Shown here in pieces: positions 8,040-51,965 of a stretch of DNA of 64,000 nt. The notes beneath the pieces were generated by a model. That model saw only the letters and a list, made by a program, of their open reading frames with translations. It did not search any database and was not told the origin of the DNA. Each line of letters starts with the position of its first letter. The first letter of the stretch is position 1. Source of the stretch: Mytilus edulis (taxonomy: Eukaryota). Location of the stretch: NCBI RefSeq assembly GCF_963676685.1, contig NC_092352.1:73470001-73534000 (forward strand), read 5' to 3'. Made by a program: the position numbers and the translations under genes.

Positions 8040-8660
8040 TTCTAAAAATTGTAAAAGCAATAAGTCATTTTTATAAATGTCCTGTATACAAAACTTTGAA
8101 ATTTTCGAAAAACTAAGGATTTTCTTATCCCAGGCATAGATTACCTTAATCGTATTTGGCACAACTTTTTTAAATTTTGGATCCTCAATGCTCTTCAATT
8201 TTGTAAATGTTTGGCTTTATAAATTATTTTGATTTGAGCGTCACTGATGAGTTTTTATGTAGACGAAACGCGCGTCTGGCGTACTTAATTGTTATCCTTG
8301 TAGCTTTGATAACTATTTACAACATTTGGTCGATGCCACTGCTTTTGGACGTTTCGTCCCCGAGGGTATCACCAGCCCAGTAATCAACACTTCGATGTTG
8401 ACATGAATATCAATAATGTGGATTTTTTTTTTATAAATTTCCTTTTTACAAAACTTTGAAATTTTCGAAAAACTAAGGATTTTTTTTTTTATCACAGGCA
8501 TGGATTACCTTAGCCGTATTTGGCACAACTTTTATGAAATTTTGGATCCTCAATGCTCTTCAATTTTGTAATTGTTTGGTTTTATAAATTATTTTGATTT
8601 GAGAGTCACCGATGAGTCTTTATGTAGACAAAACGCGCGTCTGGCGTACTTAATTATAAT
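8040..8660 (+). mobile_element. Non-LTR retrozyme-like tandem repeat (~365-bp period) with two type I minimal hammerhead motifs
   Basis: Direct repeat (e.g. acaaaactttgaaattttcgaaaaactaagga at ~8087 and ~8448). Hammerhead at 8238-8282 with intact CTGATGA/GAAA core; second at 8603-8647 with CCGATGA and AAAA core mutations. Confidence 0.8.
8238..8282 (+). ncRNA. Type I minimal hammerhead ribozyme
   Basis: gcgtca-CTGATGA-gttt ttatgt agac-GAAA-cgcgcg-TC-tggcgt, with the palindromic helix III characteristic of Penelope/retrozyme minimal hammerheads. Confidence 0.8.
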
Positions 8661-37190: not shown

Positions 37191-38412
37191 TGTGATACCA
37201 TTAAAAAAAATCTTATAACCAAAATGTCAATTTTCTATAACATTTATGTGATTTACTTTATTTTTATATCCTCATTCTCAACTTTTCAGGATGAAATACA
37301 GGACAAACATAAAAGTAAATACTTGTATTCTATATAAACATAATCGTTGAAGAAAATGATTAGTTTCATGCTTAGATATACTGCAAAAAGATAAGAAAAA
37401 CAATTAAAAATAGTAGAGGTTGCATTATTGACTTTCTCATGATTTTCTGTATTGGTTTTATGTTTGTATTTTTAAACAGGAACAACTTAGATCAACCCAG
37501 TCCTGGATGTTCCGTTTTCGGTTTATTGATGCCATGGACTTGTCTGTTAGGATTCAACTTCTGCATTTGCATGTTTCTCCTCTCTTTAATTGTCTTTATT
37601 TTCTCCTTCTTGTTGTTCAAAATTTTGTTCTGTGTGTGGCAAGCAACTGTATGTTAACATTTTTAAAACCAGTCTTCACATATATCAACGCATATCGTAG
37701 AAATTAAAAAGAAAAAAAAAACACAACTAAGAAAGAATAGCAACCGGTGGCATTCGTGTAGTAGGCGTAACATAATGTTTATTGGTAACCGATTAAATCT
37801 GCTATAAAAAATATAAAAAAATATTTGGTAGTTAATAGATTATAAGTTTTTCATCATATACTTGATATCCGAAAGTATAAAATGGTAATTTCGGATATAA
37901 GTCACTTCAAAACTATTAGAAAACCAATAAAAACTTGTGAAAACCCGCTGAAAATTGCTTTCGTCTTGCGCTTGATATCAGAAAAATATCAAAGTTAGAC
38001 AACCATTCAGCTGAAAGACATTTCCTAGGTTACCGTTTTAAATTCATGAAAACAAAGTTCTAGGAAAAAGCCAAGTCTGCACTAGTTTATATCTTGATTT
38101 ATATGCAGTTAAAATTTCTAAACGGACATTCCATACTTCAATAGTTATGATAAATATAATCATATAAAAAAGAGGATGTGGTATGATTGCCAATGAGACA
38201 ACTATCCACAAAAGACCAAAATGACACAGACATTAACAACTATAGGTCACCGTACGGCTTTCAACAATGAGCAAAGCCCATACCGCATAGTCAGCTATAA
38301 AAGGCCCCGATAAGACATTGTAAAACAAGTCATACGAAAAAACTAACGGCCTTATTTATGTAAAAAAATGATGAATGTCTGGAAGTACCTATCAGCCACG
38401 TTTGCCTATTCT

Positions 38413-38512
38413 CCAGGACCCAACACGTCGTGTTTCTGCAATACAGAATAGGACAAACTCTATAATATTCCGTGGCTCATATGAAGGGTGGGTGCTTCAT
38501 CAGGGGTTCTGA
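38413..38512 (-). ncRNA. Second copy of the PLE 3' hammerhead
   Basis: Reverse complement of 41730-41829, with a mismatch and a wobble in helix I. Confidence 0.65.
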
Positions 38513-38531
38513 CCCAATCCTTCATATTGTA

Positions 38532-40472
38532 CTAAGCTTTGACTACCGATCTAGTCAGTATTTCTTTTAAGTTCCGATGTCTACTATACGCCACCATTGG
38601 GTGGTTTTGGAAATAACTCCCTACATTTCGCATTGCGAACTTGTTTTTTATAATGTTTTCGTAAAGCTTTATTTATATTTCCTAACGAGAAGTGATATTT
38701 TGTTACAAATACTAGTGGTATCTGCTTGTCAGATTCTTGATTAAAGCGGAGTAACTCTAGTCGTTCGATATTGAGAGCCGATTCACAGCTACGAAGTATT
38801 TCAAGGTCGTTATATCCCCTTTGCTTAAGATGGCCTTTGAATATACAAAGAGTACATTTTGTATCTTAAATTTTGCGTGTTGCTGTTGTTTCGGTGGTGG
38901 CGAATAGCTTCCCCTTTTATAAATCCGGAGAAGACTGTTGGGTTATGCATAGACGTTCTATCTAAATATTGAAACGTATTAGTAGGTTTGGTGTAGCTCT
39001 TAATATCAAGGATACCGGTGTTCCTGAACCTCAACCCTTTATGTACGACTGTATCGAGAAAGATAATTTCCTCGTTTGAAATTTCAAACGTAAACTTTAA
39101 TAAAGGGTGATGATCATTTGCTATTTTAAAAAACTCCTCAACTTCTCCTCGTGATGAATGGGCTATTATAAACGCATCATCTCTATACCTTCCGTAAAAT
39201 AAGATCTTATTTTTATACTTATATTTTTCAATAATTTCATTGATAACTTCGAATGCTCTAATATCACAAATTTCTGGGCTGCATTTACTTCCCATACTAG
39301 CGCTTATTTTCTGTACAAAGTATCGGTCATTAAATTCAAAATAATTGTTTTTCAACACTGTGGCTACTAACGATTTAATTGTTTCACAGTTAGGCAATTT
39401 TATCGGATAATCTTCTTTTACTGCACTGTAATAAGCCCGTCCAACAGAATGAATGAGTTCATTGAACTCCATGTTTGTATACATGCTGGTGCAGTCAAAA
39501 GAAACTAAGAGGCAATCCCGATCAGGCCTTACATTTTCTATTTTATTTATGAAATCCCCACTATCTCTAATGTAACTGTTCTGTCTTTTAACTATAGGTA
39601 TCAAAAAGTAATCAATAAATTTGCTAACCCTTTCGGTGACAGAGTTACATTGAGAAATAATCGGTCTGCATGGGGGTAATTCATTTACTGTAATCGTTTG
39701 TTTTTTTATCCCTTGAAAAACAAGTTCACTTAATTTGTGAAGTTTAGGAAGAAGAAAAAGACGACCCAATCTGGGTCCCTCTTTCGATGAGCCATGGAGA
39801 AAATCAAGAGTTATCCCATCAATCTCACCATTGTCAAACGTCTTGCTGATTTGTGTTTGTACATTATTTTTAATCAGTAATATATTAGGTTCTTGTATCT
39901 CCGTGTAATGGATATAGTTTAACTGTCTGAACCCTTCTTTAATGTAGTGTGTCTTTTTAGATATTACAATTGCGCCTCCCTTGTCGCTCTTAGAGAAAAT
40001 AATATACTGCATGCTTTTCAAAGATCGTAATCCTAGCTGTTGTTCTTTGGTGAAATTGTAATAATTATTTCGTAAATCAAGATTTGATAATTCAAACTTT
40101 GTTAGATCTAGATAATTTTCAAGTTCAAAGCAAGCAGGTATCGGTTCATAAAATGATTCGGAACGGATGTATTCCCCGACTTTCTGTATTGCCAAAATGA
40201 AAACGACATCTAAGTTTTCTGGCAAATTCATTGAAGTCTGCCATTACAAATCTGCCTATATTACACTTCTTAGGCATAAGTATAAATTTCAAACCTTTAC
40301 CTAGAACAATGTATTGGTCGTCTGTCAATTGACAGTTGGCTAAGTTATATACATATTGTTTAGCTTTATATACCTGTCCTTTTTTTTGTTGTCTTTTCTT
40401 TGTAGAAACCCGATCGAGTTTTCTTATTTTCTGTTTAACAGTTTTTACTTTCTTTTTAGATCAGCGAGCCAT
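38532..40472 (-). pseudogene. PLE reverse transcriptase ORF (~645 codons, disrupted), no GIY-YIG endonuclease
   Basis: Starts MAR*SKKKVK...VYNLANCQLTDDQYIVLGKGLKF; frameshifts near 40165, 38850 and 38605; ends ...NLKEILTRSVVKA* at 38532. Confidence 0.85.
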
Positions 40473-40659
40473 TCTTAATATTGACGATTGCCAATCTGAT
40501 AGTTATAAATGCGATCACAATTATAACTTTTACGCCTAAAACAAACCACAATGGGAAAACCAACTGTCTGCAATCACAGACAAATGGAAACTGAATGCAC
40601 ACATTTTATCGTACATCTACTTAATGATAAATCCTGATGGTACTTCCAGACATTCAACA

Positions 40660-41710
40660 GTCATCGAAAGGGTTAGCAAATTTATTGATTACTTTTTGAT
40701 ACCTATAGTTAAAAGACAGAACAGTTACATTAGAGATAGTGGGGATTTCATAAATAGCATGTATACAAACATGGAGTTCAATGAACTCATTCATTCTGTT
40801 GGACGGGCTTATAACAGAGCAGTAAAAGAAGATTAACCGATTAAATTACCTAGCTGTGAAACAATTAAATCGTTAGTAGCCACAGTGTTGAAAAACAATT
40901 ATTTTGAATTTAATGACCGATACTTTGTACAGAAAATAGGCGCTAGTATTGGAAGTAAATGCAGCCCAGAAATTTGTGATATTAAAGCATTCGAAGTTAT
41001 CAATGAAATTATTGAAAAATATAAGTATAAAAATAAGATCTTATTTTACGGAAGGTATAGAGATGATGCGTTTATAATAGCCCATTCATCACGAGGAGAA
41101 GTTGAGGAGTTTTTTAAAATAGCAAATGATCATCACCCTTTATTAAAGTTTACGTTTGAAATTTCAAACGAGGAAATTATCTTTCTCGATACAGTCGTAC
41201 ATAAAGGGTTGAGGTTCAGGAACACCGGTATCCTTGATATTAAGAGCTACACCGAACCTACTAATACGTTTCAATATTTAGATAGGACGTCTATGCATAA
41301 CCCAACAGTCTTCTCCGGATTTATAAAAGGGGAAGCTATTCGCCACCACCGAAACAACAGCAACACGCAAAATGTAAGATACAAAATGTACTCTTTGTAT
41401 ATTGAACGGCCATCTTAAGCAAAGGGGATATAAGGACCTTGAAATACTTCGTAACTGTGAATCGGCTCTCAATATCGAGCGACCAGAGTTACTCCGCTTT
41501 AATCAAGAATCTGACAAGCAGATACCACTAGTATTTGTAACAAAATATCACTTCTCGTTAGGAAATATAAATAAAGCTTTACGAAAACATTATAAAAAAC
41601 TAGTTCGCAATGAGAAATGTAGGGAGCTATTTCCAAAACCACCAATGGTGGCGTATAGTAGACATCGGAACTTACAAGAAATACTGACTAGATCGGTAGT
41701 CAAAGCTTAG
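40660..41710 (+). pseudogene. Inverted, 5'-truncated PLE RT copy
   Basis: ORFs 40624..40836, 40885..41418 and 41402..41710 match the minus copy. A 57-nt deletion removes KIENVRPDRDCLLVSFDCT. Confidence 0.88.
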
Positions 41711-41729
41711 TACAATATGAAGGATTGGG

Positions 41730-41829
41730 TCAGGACCCCTGATGAAGCACCCACCCTTCATATGAGCCACGGAATATTATAGAGTTTGTCCTATTCTGTA
41801 TTGCAGAAACACGATGTGTTGGGTCCTGA
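41730..41829 (+). ncRNA. Type I hammerhead ribozyme with expanded helix II, in the PLE 3' end
   Basis: Helix I tcaggaccc/gggtcctga, CTGATGA 41739-41745, GAAAC 41806-41810, helix III acac/gtgt, cleavage triplet GTT 41818-41820. Confidence 0.7.
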
Positions 41830-41961
41830 GGAATAGGCAAACGTGGCTGATAGGTACTTCCAGACATTCAACATGTAGAGTCATGCCTAATTGTTCTTGA
41901 CACTCGTATTTATCAACTGATTTTTTGCTGCAATGTTACACAATTTAACTAGTTACAGTCA

Positions 41962-45284: not shown

Positions 45285-51965
<6,681 letters not shown>

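Follow-up and report, generated by a model that had tools for sequence, protein, structure and literature searches.

Hammerhead ribozymes in the repeats of Penelope-like elements (PLEs), hammerhead pseudoknots, a mismatch at the base of helix II and occasional loss of the endonuclease are already known from the accessible text of earlier reports (PMC4209133, PMC3088659, PMC8557442). As far as the available text of Perreault et al. 2011 (PMC3088659) goes, a base-paired pseudoknot occurs in about 40% of hammerheads, is often built from bases just downstream of stem II and is needed for fast cleavage; an earlier note on the DNA studied here, which held that natural hammerheads use only short loop–loop contacts, was mistaken on this point. 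The pseudoknotted extended hammerheads I–III in the same text have in common with the present one a canonical core, a Watson–Crick helix between the helix I side and the bases after stem II, and a short stem II. Here, however, that helix (helix a) counts 14 bp and contains an internal loop, loop II measures 52 nt, helix II stands on an A-A mismatch and the cleavage triplet is GUU. Loop II is moreover predicted to pair with the 3′ flank (13 + 6 bp), and no double-sided case was found in the accessible part of that report.

Hammerheads of PLEs, in the portions available of Cervera and de la Pena 2014 (PMC4209133) and of PMC6765202, lie as here in a terminal repeat after the ORF, with tandem and inverted copies. 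The hammerheads of PMC4209133 also share with our set an extra base after A9 (four sister families here) and a near-palindromic, dimerisable helix III. Published metazoan examples are, in the same available text, minimal type I motifs that lack helix III and tertiary contacts, whereas the families described below have a helix III of 4–7 bp, a pseudoknot and long loops, and 8 of the 14 are type III. Published animal examples are also barely active, and copies keep sequence past the cut. For an anole PLE, the accessible text reports that the ribozyme is dispensable for insertion in vitro, that uncut RNA is the dominant insertion substrate and that reverse transcription starts internally, near a stem-loop (PMC11167929).

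Among endonuclease-deficient PLEs, Athena, Coprina and the Neptune-like MjPLE01 (Craig et al. 2021, PMC8557442, in part) resemble the present element in a reverse transcriptase (RT) lacking GIY-YIG, a hammerhead near the 3′ end and an optional coiled-coil ORF1. Extra helices or pseudoknots round an unchanged core recall the PK hammerhead (PDB 8YDC; Zhan et al. 2024, PMC11300833) and the type-SGC permuted hammerhead (Eckert et al. 2023, PMC10085705); in the text available, the pseudoknot of the former replaces helix II, which is kept here, and the block order of the latter is scrambled, whereas ours is plain type I. Mytilus itself has non-LTR retrozymes (Cervera and de la Pena 2020, PMC7229834, in part), with a type I hammerhead in mussel repeats and proposed cleavage and circularisation, but these are non-coding, 350–390 nt long and have a small loop II, compared with the RT-coding element of about 3.2 kb described here. 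The literature searched contained no hammerhead with loop II paired to both its flanks, no animal PLE with a type III hammerhead and no description of this dispersed, endonuclease-less PLE clade, although closed-access papers, Repbase entries or supplements could hold any of these.

The hammerhead and its host element

We analysed 64,000 nucleotides of Mytilus edulis DNA (the window; contig NC_092352.1, 73,470,001 to 73,534,000). The window contains two 5′-truncated copies of the element, back to back, and the hammerhead studied here follows the TAG stop codon (41708–41710) of an endonuclease-less Penelope-like RT frame in the copy on the plus strand (Table 1). Sequence inspection and a structure finder agree on a complete type I hammerhead at 41730..41829 (+), in the plain type I block order, with a predicted cut after 41820. 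A permuted order, as in the SGC and CSG non-circularly permuted hammerheads, was considered and rejected on this ground.

Table 1. Features of the hammerhead and of the element copies that carry it (window positions).
Feature	Position	Strand	Remark
Inverted longer element copy	38369..40639	-	5′ region truncated relative to the 3.2-kb unit
Second hammerhead copy	38394..38527	-	helices a, b, c identical; one helix I mismatch
RT open frame in inverted copy	38825-40243	-	472 aa, broken at both ends
Element-end fragment, 21 nt	40639..40659	+	junction of the two inverted copies
RT frame copy	40660..41710	+	5′-truncated, frameshifted; ends TAG 41708-41710; lacks GIY-YIG domain
Helix a, 5′ strand	41715..41730	+	5′ flank of helix I; starts 4 nt after RT stop codon
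Helix I	41730-41738/41821-41829	+	9 bp, open-ended
Core strand CUGAUGA	41739-41745	+	
A-A mismatch under helix II	A41746/A41805	+	
Helix II	41747-41749/41802-41804	+	3 bp
Helix a, 3′ strand = pseudoknot	41749..41763	+	start of loop II, directly after helix II 5′ strand
Helix c, loop II strand	41765..41771	+	place of a local hairpin in 7/15 related hammerheads
Helix b, loop II strand	41784..41797	+	4 nt before helix II 3′ strand
Core strand GAAA	41806-41809	+	
Helix III	41809-41812/41816-41819	+	4 bp, 3-nt loop
GUU triplet	41818-41820	+	cut predicted after 41820
Helices b + c, 3′ strands	41830..41848	+	contiguous with helix I 3′ strand
Unpaired element end	41849..41873	+	copies stop ~53 nt past predicted cut; inferred start of reverse transcription

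The CUGANGA and GAAA core is present with A15.1–U16.1 and with H17, which is U in all 37 aligned copies of the family, and the three helices (9, 3 and 4 bp) stand in canonical order with 95–97% of their cells paired in those copies. These counts and the sequence confirm as type I what the earlier note had described as a hammerhead in a PLE with extra helices. The insert in helix II that it had put at about 55 nt is also real, although its length between the helix II strands, that is loop II, is 52 nt. Helix III is near-palindromic and able to dimerise (−8.8).

Two features of the core had been singled out as atypical, the GUU triplet and the A-A at the base of helix II. Position R10.1–Y11.1 is occupied by this A-A mismatch or, alternatively, by a G-C pair with one extra A per side. 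GUU differs in none of the 37 copies and A-A in none of 73 cells; both are thus family traits, and decay of the individual copy is rejected as their cause. A mismatch at the base of helix II is not unique to this family, since we found A-A in a second family and U-U in two more. U-U at 10.1/11.1 is tolerated in published active hammerheads, according to the accessible text of PMC3088659; A-A at this position was not found in the hammerhead literature searched. Rfam at the gathering score gave no match in the whole 64-kb window, a result for which the long loop II is a likely cause, and descriptor and Rfam searches would be expected to miss such hammerheads generally, loop II measuring 23–137 nt across the families described below. 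RNA reads from four runs numbered 5, 9, 41 and 0 over 1 kb, with only about four over the cut region and no pile of ends.

The RT frame has the features of a PLE-type RT, namely the GKGLKF and DKG motifs (named as in the accessible text of PMC8557442) and a thumb region, with RVT_1 below the cut-off, and its closest protein matches are from Mytilus and other bivalves. Relatives of the frame continue into GIY-YIG, a domain that Pfam recognised in two of the longer ones, and the nearest endonuclease-bearing (EN+) relatives here carry a CX2-5CxxC linker (compare PMC8557442, in part). Most of the 64 homologs of at least 560 aa among 120 listed end about 15 residues after the thumb motif, and four carry the cysteine linker. 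A Pfam search found no GIY-YIG in P0002, P0036, an intact 646-aa ORF or the ORF upstream of the latter, so that GIY-YIG at either ORF end, the mark of the EN+ PLEs Neptune, Nematis, Penelope, Hydra and Naiad, is lacking in these proteins. A nuclease in the upstream ORF was likewise rejected, the only match there being a weak one to coiled coil. This upstream ORF of about 230 aa was seen with its weak coiled-coil match in families D and A (L093:1638-2336; L046:342-884) and is absent from the 2.56-kb unit of family B.

The full unit of the element is about 3.2 kb and includes a broken upstream frame resembling the 232-aa coiled-coil ORF of a sister family. A 181-nt region of the element has at least 41 matches on 11 contigs of the genome. 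Unlike Athena and Coprina in the accessible text of PMC8557442, which are telomeric and carry reverse telomeric repeats by the hammerhead, these copies are interstitial and scattered along chromosomes, and the fetched loci hold no run of three vertebrate-type telomeric hexamers. Features typical of Penelope-like elements are present, among them partial and head-to-tail tandems, an inverted 5′-truncated copy, a tail and a hammerhead in the repeat. Of 43 distinct copy ends, 39 fall at +47 to +62 past the cut, and flanks diverge after 41873. The element also makes small inversions and duplications at junctions. Terminal inverted repeats were considered for the piece at 40639–40659 and rejected, this being a junction fragment; five other copies continue there into ordinary 5′ sequence. 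Two differently flanked 150-nt copies (L008/L046 and L030/L045) share the start base 41724, inside the internal loop of helix a.

Predicted pairing of loop II with both flanks

Three complementarities proposed earlier between loop II and the flanks of the ribozyme were all located and exceed those of shuffled sequences. Helix a (41715-41730/41749-41763) consists of 9 bp, a 2x1 internal loop and 5 bp; helix b (41784-41796/41831-41842) has 12 bp with one bulged base and a possible extra pair, 41797-41830; and helix c (41765-41771/41842-41848) has 7 bp, base 41842 being common to b and c. The pairing energies are −17.1, −12.7 and −10.9 kcal/mol for a, b and c, respectively. When the insert was shuffled 20,000 times with dinucleotides kept, 234 shuffles matched its pairing with the 5′ flank, 17 its pairing with the 3′ flank and none both, and the whole region folds with z = −2.89, none of 200 shuffles being equally stable. 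Helix a corresponds to the published loop II pseudoknot of hammerheads, with at least four pairs linking the helix I side to the bases that directly follow stem II, and its formation here is likely from the sequence. Helices b and c are predicted as a further pairing of the same loop with the 3′ flank.

The seven helices tile the ribozyme with at most one base in common per junction, one shared base occurring at three junctions. Helix a adjoins helix I and its second strand adjoins helix II; helix I adjoins the 3′ strand of b, which adjoins that of c; and 4 nt separate b from helix II. All of the first 28 nt past the cut (41821–41848) fall in predicted helices, an anatomy that accommodates the earlier ideas of a multi-pseudoknot hammerhead and of a fold that holds the 3′ product.

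We aligned 37 of the 40 distinct copies, dropping three short copies that lack the 5′ flank. Every helix is 91–97% paired in the 37 copies; helix I runs directly into b in 34 of them, and b into c with no linker in most. Compensatory changes on both sides were found in no helix, but the copies are 86–100% alike and the covariation test therefore has no power within the family. Paired, core and unpaired positions diverge alike (1–6%), as under neutral decay. Contigs from four other runs belong to the same family and added no usable compensatory change. The earlier note had further pointed to preservation of the pairings in the inverted copy; a, b and c are indeed identical there, but with 96–98% overall identity to the plus-strand copy it is too similar to lend independent support. 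The check by covariation that it proposed is thus uninformative among copies, and comparison across families supports helix a, and b and c in only one other family. In contigs of run X3, presumed to be RNA and read with no matched DNA, 41660–41845 shows 16 A-to-G against 5 G-to-A places, an excess such as double-stranded RNA editing of inverted copies would give.

Searches beyond these copies returned little that differs from the family. When the genome was searched for the spacing of this core, 35 matches came back; by their letters, 31 belong to the studied family, and one outsider examined (L226) showed no hammerhead helices visible by eye. Among closer relatives sought for b and c, the diverged copy L081 is decayed and breaks off before reaching the 3′ flank; it had one other weak match. 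A metagenome scan returned one locus of the same family; viral contigs returned no relatives by protein and 122 pattern matches; and prokaryote genomes returned a single contig, whose RT frame is broken and which lacks an intact core. L376, a contig binned with a bacterial MAG that carries a broken RT of the clade, is most likely animal DNA.

Related families and the reverse transcriptase tree

Three protein searches of the genome, in each of which 150 of about 1,500–1,700 candidates were scored, led to 80 fetched regions, in which the structure finder gave 229 matches, 86 of them distinct. One representative was taken for each of 14 families (6 type I, 8 type III). One further family (L197), with a decayed helix II, failed the finder and was excluded from the pairing tests, and an extra type III motif with no linked RT (L092+) was kept apart (p 0.11). 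The related endonuclease-less families are 33–42% identical in the RT C-terminal query. In all 14 representatives the core and helices I–III are kept with other letters, and an equivalent of helix a, 4–9 bp of varied letters, stands at the same place.

With fixed windows, the 5′ flank of helix I and the first part of loop II pair significantly (p<0.05) in 11 of the 14 families, with p 0.065–0.08 in the other three; a control window in the same test is significant in 1 of 14. These families are related and hence not independent. The register is constant in 15 of 15 representatives, the strands ending 5–9 nt before the core and starting 10–15 nt after C3, and three or four pair types occur at each position of helix a, in a register chosen for pairing. 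No more than 5 of the 14 families pair better with their own partner than with any other, because the families are related and several share letters. From these sequence comparisons we consider helix a well supported across the clade. A local hairpin follows helix a directly in 7 of 15 motifs; in the studied family, helix c stands there, its second strand being supplied by the 3′ flank.

The 3′ pairing is rarer. Loop II pairs with the 3′ flank at p 0.002–0.003 in the studied family, and family B, of unrelated sequence and with a loop II of 137 nt, has a duplex at the same junction (p 0.009, or 0.10 when the partner region is left free). The tail of family B is 56 nt, with 25 of 29 ends at +55 to +62. 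In the other four of the six type I families (C, D, E and I) the 3′ flank pairing is not significant (p 0.14–0.60), and tails there are about 175–260 nt where measured; the matching test fails in all nine type III hammerheads. General pairing of element ends to loop II was rejected, the terminal window being significant in 1 of 12 families. The base of helix II varies as well, with A-A in two families (the second being K), U-U in two (H and J), an extra U in four and a direct pair in six. By eye, spaced GG pairs followed by 15–20 AT-rich bases end 41850–41873 and families B, C, D, F, G2, J, K, L and N, a possible RT start signal.

We placed the families on a quick IQ-TREE of 35 proteins, supported by SH-aLRT only and rooted at the midpoint. 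Endonuclease-less proteins group (99–100) apart from endonuclease-bearing ones; all six type I families fall in one group (99), and nine type III families lie outside it, with a support of 83 for their own group. On this tree one change between type III and type I, in either direction, suffices. Helix a starts 3–10 nt after the stop codon in all six type I families and 144–428 nt after it in the seven type III families measured. Type III hammerheads with a helix III of 5–7 bp and a loop I–loop II helix lie 3′ of the RT stop in L085, L082, L101, L104, L192, L193, L195 and L203. The dispersed endonuclease-less clade (loci L082–L118 and L184–L223) has intact frames of 646–675 aa and some near-identical tandem arrays with units of about 2.56 and 3.82 kb, from which it has probably been active recently. 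With about 14 families carrying apparently complete, braced ribozymes in two permutations, some of them in near-identical tandems with intact ORFs, cleavage, re-ligation and circles become directly testable.

Models for the extra helices

The reading that we favour, at a rough probability of 0.55, is a braced, pseudoknotted hammerhead in which the extra helices would retain the 3′ product and thereby favour re-ligation or circularisation as well as a continuous template. Pairing of loop II with both flanks would connect helices I and II at their far ends, and I, a, II and b would meet in a four-way junction if all helices form. The RNA would presumably cleave, probably slowly given GUU, the 3-bp helix II and the 4-bp helix III, and helix a may compensate for this weak core. 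After a cut in a tandem transcript, 28 paired bases would hold both ends, and the nick could be re-ligated or the unit circularised. With the template thus continuous across the cut site, reverse transcription would start at +53, which would explain why copies keep the tail. If b and c do coexist with the core, a four-way junction would hold this natural hammerhead together, a scaffold not found in the literature searched.

Energies bear on this point in two ways. Nested calculations give −15.8 for helices I+II+III, −15.8 for a and −20.6 for b+c, against −44.3 for the best core-less fold tried, so that the all-paired state is competitive if sterically allowed. Nested programs prefer a core-less fold, but such programs cannot score coexistence. 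With 14 bp in helix a and 19 bp in b+c, both are longer than one turn; by reasoning, the all-paired state may therefore need strand threading in uncut RNA and would form most easily in nicked RNA, as produced by cleavage or by the two ends of a unit-length RNA coming together.

The same calculations are among the arguments for a conformational off-switch, a reading that we think somewhat unlikely. Helix a would then belong to the active fold, while b, c and a hairpin of 41730–41742 would trap an inactive two-hairpin fold that protects the template until a protein or a terminating ribosome refolds it. The nested minimum-energy fold indeed combines a, b and c and buries the core (−47.4); in the pseudoknot-free ensemble the 5-bp hairpin at 41730–41742 buries the start of the core, and transcription of the b strand takes helix I from 0.68 to 0, so that it is gone after 41842. 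Nested folding, however, cannot represent coexistence. Helices b and c leave every base of helices I and II free, a restraint that a switch would not require, and tiling with at most one shared base fits coexistence better than strand exchange. As b follows helix I after about 10 nt of transcription, a lock acting without help would inactivate the core, and yet the core is conserved. Help from translation is conceivable, the start of helix a 3–10 nt after the stop in six of six type I families being within reach of a terminating ribosome, given its footprint. The 53 nt that copies keep past the cut also speak for the switch, as does the finding, in the available text of PMC11167929, that uncut RNA is the dominant insertion substrate of another PLE.

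Internal initiation near a stem-loop, published for the anole element (PMC11167929, in part), suggests another role, in which b+c would mainly be a recognition structure for the element's RT, setting an internal start about 25 nt downstream with little catalytic effect. Tails of 53–56 nt occur in just the two families whose 3′ duplex is significant, and the c strand lies in a GG-rich stretch that was seen by eye before the 3′ end of several families. Yet the motif was judged by eye only, and the terminal window, significant in only one of 12 families, yields no general structure; we find this role quite improbable. It is harder still to believe that a alone is real, with b and c left over from a local inverted duplication, or arisen by chance, and serving no function. 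A relic would agree with a 3′ duplex that is absent or not significant in four of the six type I families, with the lack of covariation within the family and with the small inversions and duplications that the element makes at junctions. It would leave to coincidence that only 17 of 20,000 shuffles match the 3′ pairing, that b and c exactly abut helices I and II, and that a duplex recurs at this place in a second family.

The braced hammerhead can be extended to the whole clade, in a version that is speculative and, taken together, unlikely. Pseudoknotted hammerheads would be clade-wide, with one switch between types III and I, and the one studied here would be a four-way-junction, nick-and-reseal ligase that circularises the element RNA, gated by a terminating ribosome 4 nt upstream of helix a and coupling RT synthesis to template processing.

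Other features of the window include minimal hammerhead-like cores at 8244, 11575, 15039 and 15919, in a different abundant repeat like the mussel retrozyme type and mostly decayed. At 795–2201 (−), 49524–50480 (−) and 49613–50396 we noted an open frame of 468 aa, together with an 84-nt tandem repeat in which both strands contain open frames. Exon-like blocks of 200–300 nt, repeated 12–19 kb apart, suggest a tandem gene cluster round the insertion.
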